A stretch of 61,393 nt of DNA, the filler included, from Candidatus Woesearchaeota archaeon (lineage in GTDB: Archaea; Nanobdellota; Nanobdellia; Woesearchaeales; GCA-2687795), in the NCBI GenBank assembly GCA_030753365.1. It is 6 parts of 6 records of this genome, joined end to end, with 100 filler letters (N's around TTAATTAATTAA, not from the genome) between each part and the next. Parts side by side here need not be neighbours in the genome. Positions count along the whole stretch, not along the records: positions 1 to 27,302 come from JASMCJ010000069.1; 5 more parts are not named here. One strand, written 5' to 3'. The notes beneath the pieces were generated by a model. It was not told the DNA's origin. It saw only the letters and a program-made list of their open reading frames with translations, and made no database searches. Positions 750 through 53,833 of this stretch are shown piece by piece. Numbering within the stretch: the stretch's first letter is position 1; every line of letters starts with the position of its first letter. A program made the position numbers and the translations under genes.

Positions 750-857
750 GGACCCGTAGCCTAGCCTGGACAAGGCGACAAAGAAATAGAAAAAATCTAT
801 TTTATTCGCTAGAGCCTTCTAAGCTGTAGATCGCGAGTTCGAATCTCGCCGGGTCCG
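750..857 (+). tRNA. tRNA-Arg(TCT) with 33-nt non-canonical intron (780-812) in the anticodon stem
   Basis: GGACCCG/CGGGTCC acceptor stem, GTTCGAAT T-loop; removing the intron gives ACAGC-CTTCTAA-GCTGT. Confidence 0.9.
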
Positions 858-976
858 CTTTTTTAATACCAAAACATAACTAAGAGCTATAAAACCCAAA
901 AAGAACCCTTCTCCATAGTAAAGTTTATAAACACTATTAGCTTCTAAGTTCATAACACATTGGGGGTGTCAGAAAC

Positions 977-3408: not shown

Positions 3409-3801
3409 TCAAACCTTTTTTTTCTTCTTATAGTTCTCAACAGCCCTCTTAAGTGCATCAACTGCCAAAAGCGAGCAATGAATTTTGTTAGGTGGCAATT
3501 TCCCTAACTCCTTTACAACATCATCTTTAGTAATCTCAGATACTTCTTCAATTGTTTTGCCTTTTACCATATCGCATAAAATATCTGATGAGGAGATTGC
3601 TGCAACACAGCCGAAGGTTTTTACTTTAATATCCTCAACAATCTCTTTGCCAGCTTTGTTCTTTACTTTGATAGAGATCTCCATGACATCCCCGCATGTA
3701 GGATTACCCACCTTTCCAATGCCATCTGCATTCTTGAGTTCTCCTATATGTTTAGGATTCTTGAATATTTTCATAACTTTTTTTGAGTACATTTTTAACA
3801 C
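3409..3801 (-). CDS. iscU: Fe-S cluster scaffold IscU/NifU
   Basis: GNPTCGD, TFGC, KIHCS motifs. Confidence 0.95.
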   Translation of the reverse strand: MLKMYSKKVMKIFKNPKHIGELKNADGIGKVGNPTCGDVMEISIKVKNKAGKEIVEDIKVKTFGCVAAISSSDILCDMVKGKTIEEVSEITKDDVVKELGKLPPNKIHCSLLAVDALKRAVENYKKKKKV

Positions 3802-4962
3802 CTATTTGTTTTTAGCAAGAGGGCTCATTTTCCTTAATTTTTCAACAATCTCTGGCAAAACCTTCAATACATAATCAACCTCTTCTTCAGTATTATCTTT
3901 ACCTAATGTTAACCTTAAGCTGCCATGAGCTTCCTCTGGCTTTAATCCAATTGCAGTCAAAACATGACTGGGCTTCAGTTCTTTAGTAGAACATGCAGAG
4001 CCTGTTGAAGCTGCTATCCCTTTCTCATCAAGGTACATAAGCAAAGACTCACCTTCAATATATTTGAAAGAAAAATTAGCATTACCTGGCAATCTTTTTG
4101 TTTGATGACCATTCAGCCAGCAATCTTCAATTTCCAAAACACCTTTAATTAGTTTATCTCTTAAATTTGTTAAATGTGTTGTTTTCTTATTCATTCTTTC
4201 CATAGCAAGCTCGCAGGCCTTTCCAAAGCCAACAATGCCTGTAACATTCTCAGTGCCAGCCCTTAATCCATTTTCATGATTACCACCATGAATAAGTGAG
4301 CTAATCTTGGTGCCTTCTCTAACAAATAAGAATCCAACTCCTTTAGGTCCATATAATTTATGCGCTGAAGAACTCAAAAGGTCAACATTCATCTTCTTAA
4401 CATCAATAGGCACTTTGCCAACAGTCTGCACTGTATCAGTATGGAAATAGATATTATTTTCTTTACATGTCTTACCAATTTCTTCAATAGGCTGTATAGT
4501 CCCAATCTCATTATTAGCATGCATTATGCTGACTAAAATTGTTTCTTTTGTGATTGTTTTTTCTAGTTCTTCTGTTGAAACAAAACCTTCTTTGTCAACT
4601 GCAAGATAAGTAATCTTAAATCCCATCTTCTCTAAGAACTTGCATGTGTTTTCCACAGCAGGATGCTCTATCTTAGAAGTAATAATATGATTCCCTTTCT
4701 CTCTATTATTAAAAGCAATCTCTTTGATTGCCATATTATCTGCTTCAGTTCCTCCTGAAGTGAATATGATTTCTTTAGGCTCAGCATTGATTAGTTTTGC
4801 TATGTGTTCTCTAGCTTTATCAATGGCCTCCATAGCTTCCCTTCCAAAAGAATGTAGTGAAGATACATTGCCATACTTCTCAGTAAAATAAGGCAGCATT
4901 GTTTTGGTTACTTCTTTATCAACAGGTGTGGTTGCTCCATGATCTAAATAGATTCTTTTCAT
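3802..4962 (-). CDS. iscS: Cysteine desulfurase IscS/NifS
   Basis: YLDHGATTP, SAHKLYGPKG, STGSAC motifs. Confidence 0.96.
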   Translation of the reverse strand: MKRIYLDHGATTPVDKEVTKTMLPYFTEKYGNVSSLHSFGREAMEAIDKAREHIAKLINAEPKEIIFTSGGTEADNMAIKEIAFNNREKGNHIITSKIEHPAVENTCKFLEKMGFKITYLAVDKEGFVSTEELEKTITKETILVSIMHANNEIGTIQPIEEIGKTCKENNIYFHTDTVQTVGKVPIDVKKMNVDLLSSSAHKLYGPKGVGFLFVREGTKISSLIHGGNHENGLRAGTENVTGIVGFGKACELAMERMNKKTTHLTNLRDKLIKGVLEIEDCWLNGHQTKRLPGNANFSFKYIEGESLLMYLDEKGIAASTGSACSTKELKPSHVLTAIGLKPEEAHGSLRLTLGKDNTEEEVDYVLKVLPEIVEKLRKMSPLAKNK

Positions 4963-5324
4963 TTCACGCAAACCTCACAATTACAAGGTAGATTTATATC
5001 TTCTTTTTTATGTATCTTACAAAGATTTCCAGTCTTCTTAAAAAAAGTACAAACACTTTGAAGCTCTTTTATAACACAGCTTTTATCATTAACAATATTA
5101 CTCGCAGACTGATTAATCCTTTCAAGAACATCCTCATCAAAAACTATATCATTCCCTCTCTTTTCCTTAAAATACTGCGAAACAGCAGACTCTGTAACAC
5201 CAATAGCAGAAGCTGCATTTCTCTGGCTAAGATGATACTCACTAACCAAAACCTTTGCCAACTCCTTTCTTATAGCAGGCAAAACAATCCAAACTTCCAG
5301 TTCCTGAGGCATTCTTAACTTCAT
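4959..5324 (-). CDS. HTH transcriptional regulator with Cys-rich C-terminus
   Basis: PQELEVWIVLPAIRKELA...SQRNAASAIGVTESAVSQY; heads the isc operon. Confidence 0.8.
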   Translation of the reverse strand: MKLRMPQELEVWIVLPAIRKELAKVLVSEYHLSQRNAASAIGVTESAVSQYFKEKRGNDIVFDEDVLERINQSASNIVNDKSCVIKELQSVCTFFKKTGNLCKIHKKEDINLPCNCEVCVK

Positions 5325-14490: not shown

Positions 14491-15963
14491 CTAAAACCTC
14501 ATCACCTTAACCTCTCTGGTTTTAAGGTTAACAATCGGTACTCTGCATGGTTCAGGATGATGGCCTACTTTCTCCTGGAAAGCAGTCTTAGATTGCCAGC
14601 ATGAGCAGCAAATTAAAGAAATGTTCCTGTATAATGAAACAGAAGACTTGTGGATGTGACCTGTTACAAAGAAGTCTGGCAGAGCATCAATCACTAAGGG
14701 GTCTCTTGATTGCTCAGGAATATACAAAGTAGAAGTATGCGTAGGCGCAAGGTGCCTTCTCTGCAACAAAAACTTCATAATCAAGTCAGGCCTGTCATAA
14801 CCTCCTTTATTTCTAATGTTCTCAACATTCGCAACAAAATAATCAAACGAAAACCCATGATAAAGCAAAACATCAAAGCCAGGAAAATCTGAATTAGAGC
14901 CAATATTAACAAAAGAGGGATTAGATACCATTGTAACATTAGGCAGATCCCATATAGGTCCTGCAAAATCCTTATACAAAACAGGCTGCGGCTCAGCAAT
15001 CCTCATAGAATCATGGTTACCAGGGCAAATAATAAGTTTCTTCTCAGGAGAAATCTTCTTAAGCAGTTCAGCGCAATAACCATACTGTTTATAAACATCC
15101 TTTATGGTGAGTTCATCCTCCTGCCCAGGATAAATTCCCACGCCATCAATAAGGTCTCCAACAATAAAAACATATTTTACCTTTTTGCTAACCGCTTTCT
15201 GTGCTTCACTGCCAAGGTCTCCATTAAGCCACCTTATAAACTTAACAAGTTCCTTTTCCATAAAATTATTAGAGCCTACATGCAGATCAGAAATAAAAAC
15301 TGCATATTCCTCTTCATTAGACTTCTTCAATTGTTTTGTAAAAGGCACATCAGGCACTATAATATTATCCACAAAAACAAAGTTATTGCTTGCAGAGCCT
15401 AAAATGCCAATTACCTCATCAAGCACTATATCTTTTGCCTTCTCAAGCAATTCAGGCTTGCTCTTATGCATACAAACTTTTATATTTCCTGTTGGATCCT
15501 CAATTTCAACTAAAACATTCCCAGTTTTAGTAGTATTCTTGTCTTTTACTAATCCTATAATAGATACTTTCTCCCTTTCACGAATATCTTTAACCCTATT
15601 AATCGAAACAAGATTAGACAGTTCTGACCGGCTCTTAAGTATTGAACTTAAAGAATTAAACCTTTTATTAAAATAAGAAACAAAATCCTGAACACACCTC
15701 TTTTTGCTCTCTTCTTCGTAGGAAGATATTATTTTTATAGTCTTATCATCTTCAATATGCACAATGTTCTCATCCTGCTTAATTTGGTTTAATTTATCAA
15801 CTATCTTCTCATTAAAAAACAATGAATCATCATCCTTCAACTTCTCATATAATAGCAATAAATCTTCTTTAGATTCTATTTTATCTAAAATGTCTTTTGT
15901 AACAAGCTGGCCTTTATCCAGCAAAAACTTTACTAATTCCTGTTTAAGCTCTTCTTTTTCCAT
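14491..15963 (-). CDS. polB: DNA polymerase D small subunit DP1
   Basis: SDLHVGS, GDLIDG, PGNHD, GHIH phosphoesterase motifs plus OB fold. Confidence 0.95.
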   Translation of the reverse strand: MEKEELKQELVKFLLDKGQLVTKDILDKIESKEDLLLLYEKLKDDDSLFFNEKIVDKLNQIKQDENIVHIEDDKTIKIISSYEEESKKRCVQDFVSYFNKRFNSLSSILKSRSELSNLVSINRVKDIREREKVSIIGLVKDKNTTKTGNVLVEIEDPTGNIKVCMHKSKPELLEKAKDIVLDEVIGILGSASNNFVFVDNIIVPDVPFTKQLKKSNEEEYAVFISDLHVGSNNFMEKELVKFIRWLNGDLGSEAQKAVSKKVKYVFIVGDLIDGVGIYPGQEDELTIKDVYKQYGYCAELLKKISPEKKLIICPGNHDSMRIAEPQPVLYKDFAGPIWDLPNVTMVSNPSFVNIGSNSDFPGFDVLLYHGFSFDYFVANVENIRNKGGYDRPDLIMKFLLQRRHLAPTHTSTLYIPEQSRDPLVIDALPDFFVTGHIHKSSVSLYRNISLICCSCWQSKTAFQEKVGHHPEPCRVPIVNLKTREVKVMRF

Positions 15964-20822: not shown

Positions 20823-21368
20823 TTAAGGCGTAAAACTGGTTTGTATCCTTTCTATTAACTCAGAATAATCTTCCAATTTTACTGTTAAAAGGTGTTTGAG
20901 ATATTTTCCTTTTTCACCATGCCTTTCTTCATTGTAATACTTATTTAGTGAATAAGCTATCCTATCCGCTTCATTTACCACTTTTAATTTTTTATCAGCT
21001 TTTGCTATAAATTCAATCTTAGGTATATGATGGGGATAAAGAGTTCTTTCTATTTCTTCTATTGTATGACCTTTGCATTCTCCATCAACTATTACTTTTT
21101 CAAGTGTTTTATCTCTATCAAAAAATTGGATAAATTCCACAGTAGTTGCAATAGAAATCCCCATGTCACCAAGCATATCTTTATGCAATTCTGAGATAAT
21201 TATATGCCTATACTCTTCATTTTTAGGAATAAACTTCTTTTTACGGACCTTTGAAAATAATGTTATTTCTTCAATATCTTTTTCAAATTCTGATGGCACG
21301 CACACATATATTTCTGGGAATCTTCCATGATTAGATTCATCAATGCCAAGATATAGATAAGCACCCAT
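20823..21368 (-). CDS. RNase HII-like fold protein (divergent)
   Basis: N-terminal GIDES, IVDG, KADKK...ADRIA pattern. Confidence 0.55.
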   Translation of the reverse strand: MGAYLYLGIDESNHGRFPEIYVCVPSEFEKDIEEITLFSKVRKKKFIPKNEEYRHIIISELHKDMLGDMGISIATTVEFIQFFDRDKTLEKVIVDGECKGHTIEEIERTLYPHHIPKIEFIAKADKKLKVVNEADRIAYSLNKYYNEERHGEKGKYLKHLLTVKLEDYSELIERIQTSFTP

Positions 21369-21539
21369 AAAGCTTCACAAAGAAGAAGTAATAAATACTT
21401 TTGTATTGTCTAAAACAACTCTTTCAAACCTAAGTTTGCTTTAAATATTTCTTAATACATATAATAGAAATCTAATTTAACTGTATCTTTGAGAACAATA
21501 AACCTTTTAAATAATCTGCCGTTATATATTTTTTTTAGT

Positions 21540-22652
21540 ATGGTTGATAAAAAACAAGTAAAACTCATTCTTGAAGACAATTCCATTTTCTATGGCTTTT
21601 CATTTGGCTCAGAAAAATCAGTATCTGGTGAAGTGGTGTTTAATACAGGAATGGTTGGTTATCCTGAAACTATGACTGACCCTTCTTATAAAGGCCAAAT
21701 CTTAGTTCTCACATATCCTTTGATTGGAAACTATGGCATACCAAGTGATGATCAAGAAAACAATCTAAAAAAACATTTTGAATCAGACAAGATTCACCTT
21801 CAAGGCCTCATAGTATCTGACTACTCAAAAGACCATAACCATTGGAACTCTGAGAAATCATTATCAGGCTGGATGAAAGAGCAAGATATTCCAGGTATCT
21901 ATGGCATAGACACAAGAGAACTAACAAAGAAGTTAAGAGAAAACGGCACGATGCTTGGCAAAATCATCTGTAACGATAATGATATAGTATTAGATGACCC
22001 AAATAAGAGGAACCTGGTTAGTGAAGTTTCAGTTAAAGAATCAGTGATTTATAATGAACAAGGAGATAAGAAGGTTGTAGTGATAGATTGCGGGGTTAAA
22101 AACAATATCATTAGATGTCTCGTTGAAAGGAATTGCTGTGTAATAAAAGTTCCCTGGGATTATGATTTCTTTAAGCATGAATTTGATGCAGTTCTTATTT
22201 CAAATGGTCCTGGTAATCCAAAGATGTGTAAAGAGACAATAAATAATGTAAAAAAATGCTTAGAAAAAGATATTCCAACGTTTGGTATCTGTCTTGGCAA
22301 TCAAATACTGGCATTAGCAGCAGATGCAGACACATATAAATTGAAGTATGGCCACAGAAGTCAGAATCAACCTTGCATAGAAGTGGGCACAAAAAGATGT
22401 TATATCACTTCCCAGAACCATGGTTATGCAGTTGATACTAAAACATTACCTGAAGGCTGGCTGCCCTGGTTTGAAAATGCAAATGATGGAACTAATGAAG
22501 GTATAAAGCATAAGACAAAACCTTTCATGAGTTTCCAAGGGCATCCTGAACATTATCCAGGTCCCGTGGATACTAACTTTTTGTTTGATAAGTTTATTGA
22601 AAATATCGGAAAAGATTTTCAATCCCAAAAATTTGTCTCAATTAAAATTTAA
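21540..22652 (+). CDS. carA: Carbamoyl-phosphate synthase small subunit
   Basis: GEVVFNTGMVGY, SNGPG, GICLG, QGHPE. Confidence 0.97.
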   Translation: MVDKKQVKLILEDNSIFYGFSFGSEKSVSGEVVFNTGMVGYPETMTDPSYKGQILVLTYPLIGNYGIPSDDQENNLKKHFESDKIHLQGLIVSDYSKDHNHWNSEKSLSGWMKEQDIPGIYGIDTRELTKKLRENGTMLGKIICNDNDIVLDDPNKRNLVSEVSVKESVIYNEQGDKKVVVIDCGVKNNIIRCLVERNCCVIKVPWDYDFFKHEFDAVLISNGPGNPKMCKETINNVKKCLEKDIPTFGICLGNQILALAADADTYKLKYGHRSQNQPCIEVGTKRCYITSQNHGYAVDTKTLPEGWLPWFENANDGTNEGIKHKTKPFMSFQGHPEHYPGPVDTNFLFDKFIENIGKDFQSQKFVSIKI

Positions 22653-22654
22653 TA

Positions 22655-22807
22655 TGTCAGAAATATACCACTGGTTTCTAACCAGTGGATTAAATCCACA
22701 TTCCTGTTTTGGAAGGTGATATATTTCTGAGCATGCTCAAGAACCACCTGAAGTTGGCAAGCTATGCTTTAAGCATGCCACCTATCTATGATGGGTGGTT
22801 CTTGACA
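22655..22807. mobile_element. Structured ~150-bp element (MITE/ncRNA-like, IS200/IS605-type hairpins)
   Basis: TGTCA...TGACA ends; stems TCAGAAATATA/TATATTTCTGA and TCAAGAACCACC/GGTGGTTCTTGA. Confidence 0.55.
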
Positions 22808-22837
22808 AAGACAAATTTTAGTTATAGAGGTGATAAA

Positions 22838-23209
22838 ATGAAAGAATCATTCGCAGAACTAATTGAATTAACCAAGAAAAGCCTAAAACATGACCCGTGG
22901 TGTAATGATAATGGACTTAAAGGCTACTGTGAATCAATAATCAAAGAAACCGAAGAATTAAAGGAAGCAGTTAACAAGAAAGACCATAAAAACCTTAAAG
23001 AAGAACTAGGAGACGTTTTACTTTGCTGGTGCCATGCTTGTATGTTAGCTGAACAAGAAAAATTATTCACAACCAAAGAAGTCATAGACAGCATAAGAAA
23101 CAAACTTACAAGAAGAAAGCCATATATCTTGACAAATACAACAGTAACAAAAGAAGAAGCTGTTGAAATCTGGAAACAGGTCAAGGAACAAGAAAAACAT
23201 AAAAAATGA
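22838..23209 (+). CDS. MazG nucleotide pyrophosphohydrolase domain protein
   Basis: DPW, EELGDVL, KLTRRKP; GAGGTGA RBS. Confidence 0.88.
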   Translation: MKESFAELIELTKKSLKHDPWCNDNGLKGYCESIIKETEELKEAVNKKDHKNLKEELGDVLLCWCHACMLAEQEKLFTTKEVIDSIRNKLTRRKPYILTNTTVTKEEAVEIWKQVKEQEKHKK

Positions 23210-23343
23210 TTAACAACCCACTGGTCACTGGTCAACCGTACGTAGGATTTATAAATGATAATTCTTTAGTCTTAAATACATTTAAACCTAATTTTTATCT
23301 TGACTTTTCAGAGTTTATCATCCCAGAAAAGGAGAGTCTTATT

Positions 23344-24693
23344 ATGAATAATAAACAAAAATCAAATAAAGATTGTGAAGTTAAAATGAGACAAAAGAAT
23401 ATACAAAAAAGAGGAGAATACATAATCACAATTAAAAAATTGGTAAACGAGGATAGCAATCATTTAAATTCTAAGTACTTAGGAAATTTAGAAGATCTTA
23501 AGTTTAAGTATAGAGCTACTAAGTATTTTGGTGGTTGGAGAAAAGCGATTAAAGCGGCAGGGTTTCGACCTATAACCAATACTTGGACCAAAGATCAGGT
23601 TATAAGGGAAATTAAAGAGGTTAAGAGAGGTTTTGGATACATTCCTCATGCAAAGTATCTACACAAACTGGGTTATAGGGGCTTACATAATGGTGCAATT
23701 TCTAAGTTTGGTAACTGGAGTAATGCGTTAATGGTCGCAGGTTTTAAAGTAATGAGGAAAAAATGGAATAAAGAAAAAGTGATTAAGGAACTTAAGCTGT
23801 TGTACAAGAAAACCGGCAAAACGCTAAACTATGGTGAGCTTTATAAAAATGGTGAAAAAGGACTTGTTCAGGCAGCAAGAAAGTATCATGGTAGCTGGGT
23901 GAATGCAATGCGAGCTGCAGGATTAAAAACTCTTAGAAATGATTATTGGACAAAAGAACAACTTATGGAAGAGTTAAGGTGCGAAATTAAAACTATAGGA
24001 TATATACCATCGGGAAAAGAGTTAAAAAGAAGAGGAAGATGTGATCTAGTCTCATCAGGATCAAAGTTGTTTGGAGGATACAACAATTTTCTATCTGTAG
24101 CGGGATTTAAGCCTATTCTAATACCAAATATCTGGACCAAGAAGAACATAAAAAAGGAACTATATCTTATAGCAAAACAACTTAAACGTACACCGACAGA
24201 GCGTGATTTAATAGTTTTAGATAAAAGAACTCTAATACCAGCTACATGGAGGCAATTTAAAGGTTGGAATAATGCTATAGAGGCATATGGACTTAAAGCA
24301 AATGCAAATTTCGTTAAAGATAAAACATGGAAAACATAGGAAAAATTTGTACTAAATCTATGCAGTTCTATGTTTCCAGATTCCGAACAACATAAAATAT
24401 TACCAAACAAAACAATTCCTGATTTTTATGAACACACGATGAAAAAAATAATTGAAGTGAAAATTAACGCAGCTGATACAACAATTCCATCAGCAATTAG
24501 AAATTATTCTCCCTACTGTAATAGAATGGAAATTTGGCACTTAACAGGAAAACCTTCTAAAAATTACAAAAACAAAGTAATCTTTAGAGGACCAGATTAT
24601 ATAAGAAGCTTAATCAAAGAGGATAAAGAACTTTTAGAGGAATTTACAAAAATGCTAAATCATTACAGTCAAAATGAAAAAGAAAAACATTAG
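23344..24693 (+). pseudogene. Homing-endonuclease-associated-repeat protein with C-terminal PD-(D/E)XK nuclease; in-frame TAG at 24337-24339
   Basis: About five repeats WTKxxVIxE...FGxWxxAxxAAG; same-frame continuation WKT*EKFV...TIPDFY...IIEVK. Confidence 0.72.
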
Positions 24694-27302
24694 GAAAGTA
24701 TTAGTTTTAGGTTCTGGTGGATTGACTATAGGTCAAGCTGGCGAGAGCTTATTGTAAAGACAATAAGCCGCAAATTTGACTATAGTGGATCACAGGCCCT
24801 TAAGTGCCTTAAAGAACATGGCATTATAACGGTACTTATAAATCCAAACATAGCAACGGTGCAAACGTCCAAAGGTATGGCAGACAAAATATACTTTTAT
24901 CCTGTAACCCTTTTTTTTGTAGAAAAAATCATAAAAAAAGAAAGGCCAGATGGAATTCTTCTGGCATTTGGTGGCCAGACTGCTCTTAACTGTGGCGTTA
25001 AGCTTGAAGAAAAAGGAATTCTTAAGAAATACAATATTAAAGTTTTAGGCACCCAGGTAAAAGCAATAAAAGATACAGAAGACAGGGCTCTCTTTGTCAA
25101 AACGCTGTCTGAAATAAACTTAAAGACACCCAAAGGTTTTGCAGTAACATCTTTTGAAGAAGCAATGACTGCAGCAGACAAGATAGGCTATCCTATAATG
25201 GTAAGGATAGCATATGCATTAGGCGGCTTAGGCTCAGGAGTCTGCTACACAGAAGAAGAGCTTTTAGACAGATCAAAAAAAGCATTCTCATTCACAAATC
25301 AAATACTAATTGAAGAATACTTAGAAGGTTGGAAAGAAGTAGAATATGAAGTAGTACGGGACATATATGATAATTGCATTACAGTATGCAACATGGAAAA
25401 CTTTGATCCTATGGGAATCCACACAGGAGAAAGTATAGTAATTGCTCCTTCTCAAACATTGACAAACTCTGAATACCATAAGCTAAGAGCCATCTCAATT
25501 AGATTAATAAGGCACTTAGGCATTGTAGGAGAGTGCAATGTCCAGTTTGCACTAGACTCAAAATCAGAGGATTATAGGATAATAGAAGTAAATGCACGCT
25601 TGTCTAGGTCATCTGCATTAGCTTCAAAAGCAACTGGCTATCCTCTTGCATTCATTGCAACTAAACTAGCATTAGGCTATTCGTTAACAGAACTTCAAAA
25701 TCAAATAACAAAGAAAACAATGTCCTGCTTTGAGCCAGCTCTTGATTATGTAGTTGTCAAAATACCAAGATGGGACCTCCAGAAATTTAAAAGTGTTAAA
25801 AAAGAAATCGGTACAGAAATGAAAAGTGTGGGAGAGATAATGGCTATTGGCAGAAAATTTGAAGAGACTCTCCAGAAAGCAATAAGGATGCTCAATATAG
25901 GAATGGATGGCCTTGTTGCAAACGATGCTAAACTGAACAATATTGAAAAAGAGCTTAAAAATCCAACAGACCAAAGAGTGTTTGTTGTTGCAGAAGCAAT
26001 AAAACAGAGATATCCTATAGACAAGATATATGAACTCTCAAAAATAGACAAATGGTTCTTATATAAAATAAAAAATATAGTTGAAACTGAAGAAAAAATA
26101 AAACAGCATAACATAGAAACAATTTCTAAAGAATTAGTTTATGAGGCAAAGATTAATGGTTTTTCTGATGTTCAAATTTCAAAACTGCTCAATACAGATG
26201 AACTATCATTTAGAAAAATAAGAAAAGAGATGAATATTGTTCCCTGTGTAAAACAAATAGATACGTTAGCAGGCGAATTCCCTGCTAAAACTAACTATTT
26301 GTATCTTACTTATAATGGAACTACTGATGATATATCTTTTGAAGACAAAAATCAGGTTATAGTCTTAGGTGGAGGCGCTTACAGGATAGGCTCTTCCGTT
26401 GAATTTGATTGGTGTTGCGTTAATACAGTATTAACATTAAGAGACCTTAAGTATCCTACAATTATGATCAATTATAACCCTGAAACGGTTAGCACAGACT
26501 ATGACATCTGTGACAAACTTTACTTTGACGAATTGACATTTGAAAGGGTTATAGATATTTATGAAAAAGAAAATCCTTTAGGGGTTATTGTCTCAATGGG
26601 AGGCCAGATTCCAAACAATTTGGCAATGAAGTTCCATAATAATAATATAAGAGTATTAGGAACTGATCCCCAATCGATTGACAATGCAGAGAACAGACAC
26701 AAATTTTCAAAACTACTTGATAAACATAGCATAAAACAGCCAGCTTGGAAAGAATTAACAAATATAGAAGAAGCAAAAAAGTTTGCAGAGAAAGTAGATT
26801 TTCCAGTTCTGATAAGACCAAGTTATGTGTTAAGCGGCGCAGCTATGAGTGTTGTATTCAATGAGCATGACCTTGAAGAGTTCATATCTAAAGCATCAGA
26901 AGTTAATAGGGAACATCCTGTTGTGATTAGCAAGTTCGTGATGGGGGCTAAAGAGATAGAGATTGACGCAGTGTCAAACAAAGGCAATATACTTGCTTAT
27001 GCAATCTCAGAACATGTAGAAAATGCAGGAGTCCACAGCGGTGATGCTACTATGGCGCTTCCGCCTCAAAAAACATATCATGAAACAATAAGAAAAATAA
27101 AAAGAATTGCCAAAGAAGTTGCAGAACATCTCAAAATAACAGGGCCTTTTAACATCCAATTCCTAGCAAAGGATAATAAAGTCAGTGTAATTGAGTGCAA
27201 TCTAAGAGCATCAAGATCATTTCCTTTTGTATCAAAGGTGTTCAAAGTAAATTTCATAGAGCTTGCAACCAAGGCCATCATGAACGAGCAAGTAGCCAAG
27301 AT
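24674..27302 (+). CDS. carB: Carbamoyl-phosphate synthase large subunit, N-terminal part, interrupted by a 29-nt insert (24746-24774); truncated by gap
   Basis: Removing the insert gives [36 protein letters not shown]..., in frame with ORF 24859. Confidence 0.95.
24746..24774 (+). other. Putative BHB-type intron in carB mRNA
   Basis: Perfect 9-bp hairpin GCTTATTGT-AAAG-ACAATAAGC; removal restores the conserved motif and frame. Confidence 0.75.
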
Positions 27303-31141: not shown

Positions 31142-32038
31142 TTAATTAACATAAGCACCTAGTATCCAGGCTTCTATATTATCAAAGTCTCCTAATTTCT
31201 TTAAAGCTTTGTCTTGTATTTGCCTTATTCTTTCTCTGCTTAAATGGTATTTATCACCAGCCTCTTTTAATGTTAATGGAGTTCTTCCATTCAGTGCAAA
31301 TCTATCTCTTAAGACATCTGCTTCTCTTTCAGTTAAAGTTTCCAAGACCGAGTCAATTGTTTCAATCAAAGCGTCATTTAAAGCATCTTCTTCCATATCA
31401 TAACTTAAATCCTCCATGAAATCTACTAGACTTGAAAAAGCCCCATCGTCTCCTGTAGGAACATCAAGAGAAACAGGTTGCATATTATCAGCATCTAATG
31501 TTCTTTCTACTCTCTCAACCGCCATATTCAAGTTTTCTGCAACTAATTGTAAATTTGCTTCATATCCTATTTTTTCAAGTCTTTTTTGTTCTTTTCTTAT
31601 TCGATTCAATTCAGAAACTCTATTTATTGGCATTCTAATCGTCCTGGCCTGATCAGCCAATGCCCTGAAAATATTCTGCCTTACCCACCAATAAGCATAA
31701 GAGATTAAATGGTAACCTTTCTCAACGTCAAACCTATTTACTCCTTCAATTAATCCAATATTTCCCTCATTAATAACCTCTAAAAGAGTAAGACCAAAAT
31801 ATTGGTATTTTTTTGCAACATTAACAACAAACCTTAGATTCGCCTTAACAAGTTTATCTTTAGCATATTTATCTCCCTTATCAGCTCTTTTGGCATACAT
31901 AACTTCATCTTCTCTTGTGAGCATTGGTATTCTATTTATCTCTTTAAGATACATAGGCAAAATTTCCCTGTCTTCTCGAGAACCATTTCCTCCCACATAA
32001 TCTATTTTTTCCTTGACTCTTACAGTTGCATATGGCAT
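31142..32038 (-). CDS. Bacterial-type sigma-70 family factor (RpoD/RpoS-like, regions 1.2-4)
   Basis: YLKEINRIPML, ANLRFVVNVAKKY, EGNIGL, SYAYWWVRQ, SRERIRQIQDKALKKL. Confidence 0.92.
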   Translation of the reverse strand: MPYATVRVKEKIDYVGGNGSREDREILPMYLKEINRIPMLTREDEVMYAKRADKGDKYAKDKLVKANLRFVVNVAKKYQYFGLTLLEVINEGNIGLIEGVNRFDVEKGYHLISYAYWWVRQNIFRALADQARTIRMPINRVSELNRIRKEQKRLEKIGYEANLQLVAENLNMAVERVERTLDADNMQPVSLDVPTGDDGAFSSLVDFMEDLSYDMEEDALNDALIETIDSVLETLTEREADVLRDRFALNGRTPLTLKEAGDKYHLSRERIRQIQDKALKKLGDFDNIEAWILGAYVN

Positions 32039-32218: not shown

Positions 32219-32311
32219 TGGGGCCGCGGAGACTTTCAAACCATTAATGGCTTTTGAACTCCGGTTACCAGACCCCCAGCCTGGTATCATTCCAAGCTAG
32301 ATCACAGCCCC
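32219..32311 (-). tRNA. tRNA-Pro(GGG) with 20-nt T-loop intron (32233-32252); first 10 nt overlap the LAGLIDADG ORF end
   Basis: GGGGCTG/CGGCCCC acceptor, CCAGG-CTGGGGG-TCTGG anticodon arm, spliced T-loop TTCAAAT. Confidence 0.88.
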
Positions 32312-33129
32312 AAATGATTTTTCACTCTAGATAAATGTTTTTTATTTGAAAATCCTATTTCCTTTATATATATTCTAACTTCATCTTTTTTATACAAAGT
32401 AACGGAATAAGGAGTGTTTTGGATAAATGTAAGATTAAAATAGTTTGCCATCTTTTGTAAATCAGTTAATAAGTTAGACGCCCTGTTGTGAAAAGAGATA
32501 TATAGTTGTTTATCACGTTTATGGTAGTGCGTACAACCATCTGTATCAATCATTCCTCTTATACAGTATCTTGAGAAAGTTTTGTTGGTTTTAATCCACT
32601 TGGGTACTTGAATATTTCTTTTTACTTTATTACCTTGACCCAAACCATATTTTTCAAGAAGTATCCTTAATTCTTTACTATATACATATATAGATACTGA
32701 TTTAGACCTTTTACTTTTATATACTTTTGGTCCTATTCCGAACAATTTCTTAAATAGTTTTTTTATATGTTCTTTAAATTCCTGTTCTTCACTACTTATA
32801 ATTATTCTTATGCTATCCCTATAAATATTTCCATCACCAAGCATTATACCAATAAATTCTGCAAAATCTTGGACCTTACCTTCAAATTGTATTTTAATGG
32901 GTTTAAGATACTTTCCAAAATTTCTTTCTGAATGGAATTTTGCTTCGATTAGCTTCAATGATTTTCTAGGAATCCTGCTTATTTTTACTATTACATCCAA
33001 TTGACTTTCAGAAATTGATTTGCTTTTATATATGAGATTCTTCAAATTAGTTCTTATTGATGTCTTTAATAGCTTTTTATAATACTGTCTTAGTAGTTGC
33101 CTTATTAGTAAATTAATTTTGTATCTCAT
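32302..33129 (-). CDS. Free-standing two-motif LAGLIDADG homing endonuclease
   Basis: FAEFIGIMLGDG and YCIRGMIDTDG; no intein splicing motifs. Confidence 0.88.
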   Translation of the reverse strand: MRYKINLLIRQLLRQYYKKLLKTSIRTNLKNLIYKSKSISESQLDVIVKISRIPRKSLKLIEAKFHSERNFGKYLKPIKIQFEGKVQDFAEFIGIMLGDGNIYRDSIRIIISSEEQEFKEHIKKLFKKLFGIGPKVYKSKRSKSVSIYVYSKELRILLEKYGLGQGNKVKRNIQVPKWIKTNKTFSRYCIRGMIDTDGCTHYHKRDKQLYISFHNRASNLLTDLQKMANYFNLTFIQNTPYSVTLYKKDEVRIYIKEIGFSNKKHLSRVKNHLGL

Positions 33130-33142
33130 GTAATTTCAGGTG

Positions 33143-40869: not shown

Positions 40870-41779
40870 CAATATACTTGCTTATGCAATCTCAGAACAT
40901 GTAGAAAATGCAGGAGTCCACAGCGGTGATGCTACTATGGCGCTTCCGCCTCAAAAAACATATCATGAAACAATAAGAAAAATAAAAAGAATTGCTAAAG
41001 AAGTTGCTAAGCATCTTAATATAACAGGTCCATTCAACATCCAATTCCTAGCAAAAGACAATAAAGTAAGCGTCATTGAATGCAATCTAAGAGCATCAAG
41101 ATCATTTCCTTTTGTATCAAAGGTGTTCAAAGTAAATTTCATAGAGCTTGCAACCAAGGCCATCATGAACGAGCAAGTAGCCAAGATTGACAAATCACAC
41201 TTTGAGCTTGACTATGTTGGTGTTAAGGCCCCTCAATTTTCTTTTTCAAGGCTTAAAGGCGCAGATCCTACATTATCAGTTGAGATGGCTTCTACTGGCG
41301 AAGTTGCGTGTATAGGCAATGATATAAGAGAAGCTTTCCTGCTCTCAATGCTCTCAGTAGGTTTTAAGATACCTCAAAAGAACATCCTTCTTTCCACAGG
41401 GCCAGTTGAAAGCAAAGCCTTACTGCTCAAAGAAATAAAAAAACTTCAGGAAATGGACTACAAGCTCTATGCAACCAAAGGAACTGCCAACTTTCTAAAG
41501 GAAAATAACATTAAAACTGAAACCTTGCACTGGCCACTTGAAGAAGAGAAACCTAACATTGTTGATTTCATAAAAGAAGGTAATATAGACCTGGTGATTA
41601 ACATCCCAAAGAACTTTGAACGGGAAGAACTAACCAATGGCCAGATTATAAGAAGGACAGCAATTGATTTTGGTATTCCTCTTGTTACAAATCCTCAGAA
41701 TGCAAAGCTTTTAATCGATGCGTTGCATGAAAAGAAGTTAGAAGATATTGAAGTTAAAAGCTGGGATGAGTTTAAATAA
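40870..41779 (+). CDS. carB: Carbamoyl-phosphate synthase large subunit, C-terminal part (overlaps contig-1 copy)
   Basis: First 318 nt correspond to 26985-27302; EMASTGEV, MGS domain. Confidence 0.95.
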
Positions 41780-53128: not shown

Positions 53129-53833
53129 TTATAAACCTAACGATTCTTTTAGGGTTTTGGTCTTTTTGCTATGCCAGAATCCTATCCAATTATAGAATCT
53201 CAACCTACTTTCCTTTTTTAGGATAAATATTATACCTACAGGAGATTCAGATTTCTTTTTAGAGTTATATTCATAGTAATTGTTGTCTATGCCCATATTA
53301 TTTAGAATATTAGATATCTCTTTCATTCCATTTAGATTAATTGTTTGTACCTTTATACTTTTGCTGTTAACATACGCTTCTGCTGAGAAGAATGCCTTCA
53401 ACCAGTTTTCTTTTGCACCACTAATTCTAAATAGAATCTTTGGTAATGTCCACTTTTTTAATCCAAATTCTGCAAGGTTATATAAATCCTCAACAACTAT
53501 TTTAGAGGTAAAACGAACAGAATAAAATTTATTATCTTTTTTAACTCTTGGAATCTTATTGTAAATTGTTTTTATTTGTCTTATATAGGTATCCATCATA
53601 ATATCATCATCTGGGAAAAAATCTATTTGATAATGATAAAATGTTTTTTCTTTTCTTTTTTGGACGCTACCATCACCTGCAAGGAATCCGCAAATAGCTG
53701 CTTTCATTATTAATGAATTGGAATTACTAGAAATTCCTTCTTTCTCCTTAGCGTGAACTCTATTCCAACGTGCTAATGCTACTTTCTTATTTCGTCTTGA
53801 AAAATTCATAATTCCTAGCTTATTTAGGAGCAT
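53129..53833 (-). CDS. Free-standing two-motif LAGLIDADG endonuclease
   Basis: AAICGFLAGDG and WLKAFFSAEA. Confidence 0.85.
   Translation of the reverse strand: MLLNKLGIMNFSRRNKKVALARWNRVHAKEKEGISSNSNSLIMKAAICGFLAGDGSVQKRKEKTFYHYQIDFFPDDDIMMDTYIRQIKTIYNKIPRVKKDNKFYSVRFTSKIVVEDLYNLAEFGLKKWTLPKILFRISGAKENWLKAFFSAEAYVNSKSIKVQTINLNGMKEISNILNNMGIDNNYYEYNSKKKSESPVGIIFILKKESRLRFYNWIGFWHSKKTKTLKESLGL

Follow-up and report, generated by a model that had tools for sequence, protein, structure and literature searches.

Pre-mRNA introns of 16–44 nt are known from the cbf5 gene of Crenarchaeota (Yokobori 2009, PMC2738675). In the accessible part of that study splicing of no other archaeal pre-mRNA is confirmed, and putative introns are predicted in other genes. 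In Haloferax volcanii a bulge-helix-bulge (BHB) intron resides in the 5′ untranslated region of HVO_1309 (Schwarz 2020, PMC7714728), for which the available sections of the source give cbf5 as the sole other mRNA case. Phage collaborative homing, as outlined in the accessible text of PMC10448857, pairs a free-standing endonuclease with a group I intron devoid of an open reading frame (ORF). Here we analysed a 61,393 nt stretch of the Candidatus Woesearchaeota archaeon assembly GCA_030753365.1 (hereafter the window), in which carB, encoding the core metabolic enzyme carbamoyl-phosphate synthase, is interrupted close to its 5′ end by a short insert. From comparative sequence data we consider it very probable that this insert is a host-spliced mRNA micro-intron, processed by the endonuclease EndA and the ligase RtcB.

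The initial annotation had placed the carB start at 24674 and a 29-nt insert at 24746-24774, introducing a frameshift and a stop (TAA 24755-24757). All of this was confirmed in the sequence. From the ATG, 24 codons run to a final GAG (24743-24745), after which the insert interrupts the gene at GE/FDYSG, the TAA being its earliest in-frame stop. FDYSG resumes at 24775 and opens 842 codons without a stop up to the contig end at 27302. The remainder of carB and carA had been described as intact, which holds for carA and for the open exon 2; the 3′ part of carB, however, sits on another contig (40870-41779). Positions 26985-27302 overlap with 40870-41187, showing 15 mismatches in 318 nt: the two contigs are co-assembled strain variants. 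The full length of CarB was estimated to be 1063 aa. The motif at the split is not invariant as had been supposed, since GQAGE varies among relatives and GEAGE is equally common.

The insert contains the predicted perfect 9-bp hairpin (24747-24768, with a 4-nt loop), and the exon-exon helix CTATA-G-GTCAA/TTGAC-TATAG was found as proposed. The fold of the pre-mRNA comprises, in this order, the exon-exon helix, a 3x3 internal loop, a three-pair central helix, the AGA bulge and the hairpin. For a 74-nt region we obtained a folding energy of -31.3 kcal/mol compared to -12.2 ± 2.6 kcal/mol for 200 shuffled sequences (z -7.47), none of which was as good. The suggested central helix GGCG/CGCA with AGA and AAT bulges was only partly recovered: three of its four pairs form, the outer one being a G-A mismatch, and AGA is a true bulge, but the 3′ AAT opposes the unpaired GCT at 24737-24739. 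This constitutes an internal loop and hence a relaxed rather than a strict BHB motif. The BHB architecture, in which either strand of a 4-bp central helix is followed on its 3′ side by a bulge of 3 nt, is thus present in relaxed form. Cuts following the second base of both bulges restore the CarB reading frame (GE-F). While the bulge register supports the proposed GAG/TTT junction, protein homology alone admits the registers 0, -1 and -2, which all give E-F. Among these three, helix pairs exist in register 0 only.

A group I or group II intron is excluded, as the insert has 29 nt compared to at least 150 nt for a ribozyme core; Rfam gave one chance match to a small nucleolar RNA only. In a scan of the genome (897 kb) for structure and coding, the carB insert ranked first of 531 candidates, five of which were above P 0.3. 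The next 11, mostly judged by eye, appear to be boundaries between genes or frames that are non-coding. A scan candidate at 14492 was rejected as a polD-small/MazG gene junction. At the P 0.3 cut-off the structural score recovers 51 of 63 introns at the site found in the window (site B, see below) but 6 of 20 at a neighbouring site (site A), and it is blind to stop-free in-frame inserts, such that the absence of further mRNA introns does not follow.

Aligning carB of relatives, as had been recommended for establishing presence or absence, revealed a patchy distribution over three neighbouring sites. Among 401 genomes of the order, 100 had a carB match and 97 were informative at the 5′ end (hand count; including four unpublished genomes, all uninterrupted, used in the denominator only). 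The 5′ end was interrupted in 14 of the 97. For 20 regions, deletions were fitted with RNA structure ignored, using a profile built from the intact starts of 26 CarB proteins. In total 18 inserts of 17–40 nt were found in the 14 genomes: seven at site A (after G-S-G-A; one of these abuts a contig edge and was placed by eye), ten at site B in as many genomes, and a single one at site C, which lies one base further than site B in a divergent CarB. Sites A and B were both occupied in 4 of the 14. For all 17 fitted inserts the bulge register tied for the top structure-blind profile score; the 18th, at a contig end, was read by eye. One genome flagged as interrupted (G081) turned out to show a contig end and no insert, and in six short-frame genomes the 5′ end of carB was intact.

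The presence of the introns is patchy among related carB genes. A genome of the same genus is without the window's intron but carries a different 29-nt intron at site A. In a CarB tree (quick method, 52 rows, exon-2 sequence, support from the Shimodaira-Hasegawa-like approximate likelihood ratio test, SH-aLRT, only) the introns did not cluster, and several branches with SH-aLRT values of 97–100 pair an intron-bearing with an intron-less gene. The intron of one further genome (G359; L069, 2860-2944) is identical to that of the window in 22 of 29 bases and is flanked by the same unusual L-T-I-G exon codons, yet its CarB falls in another clade. This looks like a transfer of the intron together with flanking exon. 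The same intron types were seen in named loci labelled Ca. Woesearchaeota or Nanobdellota.

Across archaea, the hairpin sequences at the shared codon boundary are unrelated, with pairing kept. In 62 distinct site-B introns the outer four stem pairs are kept in 62, 62, 62 and 60 cases with up to four pair types, a conservation reached in 0 of 2000 column shuffles (which ignore kinship). At central pair 3, C-G gives way to T-A in step with the Gly codon. The structure is therefore conserved by covariation across homologues. The exons take part in it: the exon-exon duplex amounts to -11.1 kcal/mol in intron-bearing genes (n=68) and -5.2 kcal/mol in intron-less ones (n=39), compared to -12.2 kcal/mol in the window. 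Insert lengths occur in all three frames. Where the length is a multiple of three, a stop in the carB frame is found in 27 of 27 distinct introns, while either of the other two frames has one in just 1 of 27, such that the unspliced message is never read through.

Beyond the order, species genomes were searched using a degenerate DNA pattern consisting of both exon ends and a 10–40-nt gap, pairing not being demanded. This provided at least 120 loci, at least 96 of them carB (89 by script and 7 by eye). Together with the 14 of 97 genes in the order, this contradicts the picture of an isolated rarity drawn by the initial annotation. Among the matches listed, all 96 carB loci have at least three central and at least three stem pairs, in contrast to 0 of 24 non-carB chance matches. 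The 96 carB loci listed come mostly from ammonia-oxidising archaea and include closed chromosomes; among the script-called ones, 71 of 89 are labelled Nitrososphaerota and 78 of 89 have all four central pairs. A pattern for site A, into which a portion of the helix was built, yielded 15 loci from metagenomes, and 12 of these were parsed. Loci labelled Methanosarcinales, Heimdallarchaeota, Gallionellaceae and Acidobacteriaceae have intron types typical of the order or of ammonia oxidisers; these labels are doubtful, and we claim no range from them. For 151 genomes of Nitrososphaeria, 125 had a carB match: 55 were uninterrupted, in 35 the match spanned more sequence and contained an internal stop, and 35 were start-truncated (hand count, the latter 70 being classed from match spans). 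Four named ammonia oxidisers tested have a single carB each, which is interrupted; intron-less alleles are present in this group as well.

These introns also leave traces in databases. That gene callers miss exon 1 was borne out, as database CarB proteins of intron-bearing relatives omit or misread it. CarB of Nitrosotalea devanaterra, a cultured ammonia oxidiser with the site-B intron (L267), is annotated with 1019 aa and an internal start; among its close relatives, the annotated proteins likewise begin internally or with an N-terminus in the wrong frame. In ten proteins (P0002, P0013, P0016-P0020, P0026, P0061 and P0105) the intron region, translated in a wrong frame, forms the N-terminus.

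The genome encodes one EndA (200 aa) and an intact RtcB. The closest solved relatives of this EndA are the N. equitans catalytic subunit and the M. jannaschii enzyme. It is a single catalytic-type gene, the search not having been aimed at a structural subunit. Splicing of carB mRNA by the tRNA machinery, as proposed at the outset, is strongly supported on comparative grounds by the recurrence of inserts at the exact boundary, the kept pairing, the presence of both enzymes, the apparent purifying selection (see below) and the database CarB proteins in which exon 1 is omitted or misread. EndA would cut the pre-mRNA past the second base of each bulge, and RtcB would ligate the exons to allow synthesis of full-length CarB. 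An unspliced message would give a 27-residue peptide. A tRNA-Arg intron of the window is also relevant here. When removed in the same register as in carB, it leaves a clean 76-nt tRNA. Being relaxed and non-canonical, it implies that the genome must process relaxed motifs. A likeness between the cores of both introns had been pointed out: the tRNA-Arg gene does carry an intron, but the GGCG common to both motifs is exonic and the intron bodies are unrelated. ARAGORN found 16 tRNA genes only in the whole genome, several of them mis-called, so that introns in non-canonical positions or in numbers above one are probable for many tRNAs.

Several observations weigh against splicing in the window. 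EndA is without the N. equitans insertion near the catalytic His, and the carB motif is relaxed; according to the accessible part of PMC5829648, loops of this kind are tied to relaxed-motif cleavage and loop-less enzymes are strict for canonical BHB motifs. No aspartate/ornithine carbamoyltransferase (pyrB) was found by a family search and tblastn of the 94.5%-complete assembly, such that CarB may not be needed here. Five of five relatives tested have this gene, which in the sister genome adjoins carA. Furthermore, related loci are non-independent, and some belong to both the named and the unnamed set. The missing carbamoyltransferase, the relaxed motif facing a strict-looking EndA and the decay of an adjoining endonuclease gene (see below) would fit a scenario in which the intron family is real but the window's carB is a recent pseudogene, its intron no longer being removed or CarB being unneeded. 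We consider this improbable. Compared to the sister species (83% identity) the rate of non-synonymous differences (pN 0.107) is far under the synonymous one (pS 0.833); judged from these rates carB is under purifying selection, and the relaxed selection that would have spoken for a pseudogene was not seen. In the overlapping contig versions, the second of which covers the 3′ part only, 12 codons differ synonymously and 2 non-synonymously. In addition carA and 842 carB codons are intact, hairpin and exon helix are perfect, the tRNA-Arg intron likewise requires relaxed recognition, and the lack of the carbamoyltransferase is seen against an assembly of 78 contigs.

CarB might alternatively be made without splicing: translation could begin internally at GTG 24859, or ribosomes could bypass the hairpin or shift frame on crossing it. 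An 831-codon frame does begin at this GTG, and databases give relatives such internal starts. A hairpin with a stop near a free-standing endonuclease moreover recalls gene 60 of phage T4, where ribosomes bypass a hairpin. Exon 1 is, however, conserved and part of the pre-ATP-grasp domain. With insert lengths in all three frames no single frameshift can repair the message, and the conserved spacing of a 4-bp helix and 3-nt bulges is what EndA reads. For a bypass, the triplet ahead of the landing codon is variable, unlike GAG, and the stop does not directly follow the take-off codon. Taken together, production of CarB without splicing is very unlikely. An assembly error or a chance hairpin insertion is hardly conceivable here and refuted for the intron family, given that hairpins of differing sequence occupy the same codon boundary in 10 of the order's genomes and in at least 96 named carB loci, closed chromosomes included.

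How may such an intron spread? The initial annotation had overlooked a broken homing-endonuclease-like gene, which overlaps both the stop of the preceding MazG gene and the carB start. Its tail has 38% identity to the C-terminus of its 434-aa counterpart, which is intact in the sister genome. In this tail a PD...E-x-K motif was recognised by eye; a Pfam restriction-fold match stayed below cut-off, and Atlas leads were at 0.85-0.89. The TAG within the gene is an ordinary stop in this genome (87 of 419 long frames), and the window's copy is therefore probably dead. Upstream DNA was available for 13 of the order's intron-bearing genomes, and 9 of these have a LAGLIDADG or HNH_repeat gene directly upstream of carB compared to 0 of 46 intron-less loci (42 genomes). 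Loci with a nuclease gene have the HNH_repeat type if the intron occupies site A alone (7 of 7 loci) and LAGLIDADG if it occupies site B alone (11 loci, duplicates among them), the window being the single exception.

By analogy to phages we think it rather likely that the carB intron was spread by collaborative homing via the adjacent endonuclease. The free-standing enzyme encoded upstream would cut intron-less carB near its 5′ end, and repair would copy the endonuclease gene and the first ~100 nt of carB into the cut allele. The intron would then shield the new allele from the endonuclease. In the window the endonuclease gene would later have decayed by one nonsense codon, leaving the intron behind. 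Some observations speak against homing. The window has a site-A-type nuclease (HNH_repeat) beside a lone site-B intron; either a site-A intron was lost, the site-A codons being recoded, or a diverged nuclease is aimed at site B. Neither endonuclease type was matched upstream in 4 of the 13 intron-bearing genomes. The same applies to all 45 Nitrososphaerota loci that offer 600 nt or more of upstream sequence, such that an adjacent free-standing endonuclease co-occurs with the intron in the order but not in Nitrososphaerota (0 of 45).

In a wider picture, to which we give even chances, the archaeal carB 5′ end would be a hotspot of host-spliced micro-introns that homing endonucleases spread between lineages (HNH-repeat/PD-(D/E)xK enzymes for site A, LAGLIDADG enzymes for site B) and that became domesticated in about half of Nitrososphaeria. 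If so, the intron would be kept there without endonuclease, always with a stop or frameshift, and the synthesis of arginine and pyrimidine precursors would depend on the tRNA-splicing capacity. A regulatory use of carB splicing is speculative.

Coordinates of the carB locus and of the tRNA-Arg gene, counted along the window
Feature	Position	Strand	Details
tRNA-Arg(TCT) gene	750..858	+	relaxed-BHB intron of 33 nt (780-812); position 28/29, non-canonical
carA	21489..22652	+	intact
MazG-family gene	22709..23209	+	between carA and endonuclease gene
homing-endonuclease-like gene	23206..24693	+	five HNH_repeat (PF18780) units and PD-(D/E)xK-like tail, one frame, TAG 24337-24339
carB exon 1	24674..24745	+	24 codons; PF25596 positions 2-20 matched, E 8e-4
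splice motif, 5′ half (exonic)	24726..24745	+	arm 24726-24736, unpaired GCT 24737-24739, GGCG 24740-24743, bulge bases 24744-24745
29-nt relaxed-BHB intron (predicted)	24746..24774	+	in-frame TAA 24755-24757; 1 nt of 5′ bulge, hairpin 24747-24768, central-helix 3′ strand 24769-24772, 2 nt of 3′ bulge
carB exon 2	24775..27302	+	842 open codons, ends with contig
splice motif, 3′ half (exonic)	24775..24785	+	last bulge base and exon-exon helix arm; duplex -12.2 kcal/mol
carB 3′ end, second contig	40870..41779	+	318-nt overlap with first contig end

Elsewhere in the genome, core genes are adjoined by additional free-standing LAGLIDADG genes, at least seven in number (window 32305-33135 and 53132-53833, minus strand; L222, L223, L224, L226, L227). 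The neighbours are rtcB, metK, rps10/tRNA-Met and an RNA polymerase subunit, and by eye no intron was seen in them; one of the LAGLIDADG genes is broken. Beside one of them lies an ORF (31142-32038, minus strand) that we take to resemble a bacterial sigma-70 factor, in an archaeal genome. An imperfect palindrome of ~89 nt (1916-2004) has 21 copies genome-wide with 94-100% identity and looks like a small non-autonomous mobile element. An RNase-H-like ORF was noted by eye at 20823-21368; for RNase HII there was no genome match with PF01351. The cbf5/TruB gene of this genome (L263, G000:C10, ~3696-5213) is an 844-aa frame with a LAGLIDADG intein and has no BHB intron.

We found no carB intron in the literature; most subscription journals and supplements were outside the search, and genome papers could mention one. 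Within the literature searched cbf5 is the only precedent in a coding region, and carB would be the second, in a metabolic gene. Since carB introns occur in two distant archaeal groups, including cultured, globally abundant ammonia oxidisers, mRNA splicing by EndA becomes testable. Many CarB N-termini in databases are missing or wrong, and "frameshifted" archaeal genes may be spliced rather than dead. The link to endonucleases would offer a concrete answer to a question left open in the accessible part of PMC2738675, namely the origin and movement of introns too short to encode a nuclease.

As far as the accessible parts of the cited sources describe the known systems, the carB intron resembles that of cbf5: both are short, often have a relaxed BHB motif, lie in the coding region at a conserved codon, are gained and lost in a patchy manner and are mis-annotated by gene callers. 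The cbf5 intron is removed by EndA, while splicing of carB is deduced from comparison. In contrast to cbf5, carB is a metabolic gene of a DPANN-type order and of Nitrososphaeria, has three neighbouring sites with two introns per gene in 4 of 14 genomes, always has its reading disrupted and is linked to a free-standing endonuclease. The HVO_1309 intron shares with carB that an mRNA is the substrate of EndA (predicted for carB), but it is untranslated, whereas the carB intron breaks the reading frame. Non-canonical tRNA introns of DPANN archaea (Kaneta 2018, PMC5829648; PMC12397907) are alike in size, relaxed motif and enzymes; in carB the substrate is mRNA, and the exon helix is made by synonymous codon choice. 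Phage collaborative homing (PMC10448857) parallels carB in the endonuclease gene beside an intron in an essential gene, the joint gain and loss, and endonuclease decay. Unlike in phages, the carB intron would be a 17–40-nt host-spliced BHB hairpin rather than a ribozyme, it resides on a cellular archaeal chromosome, and two unrelated nuclease families would serve neighbouring sites.

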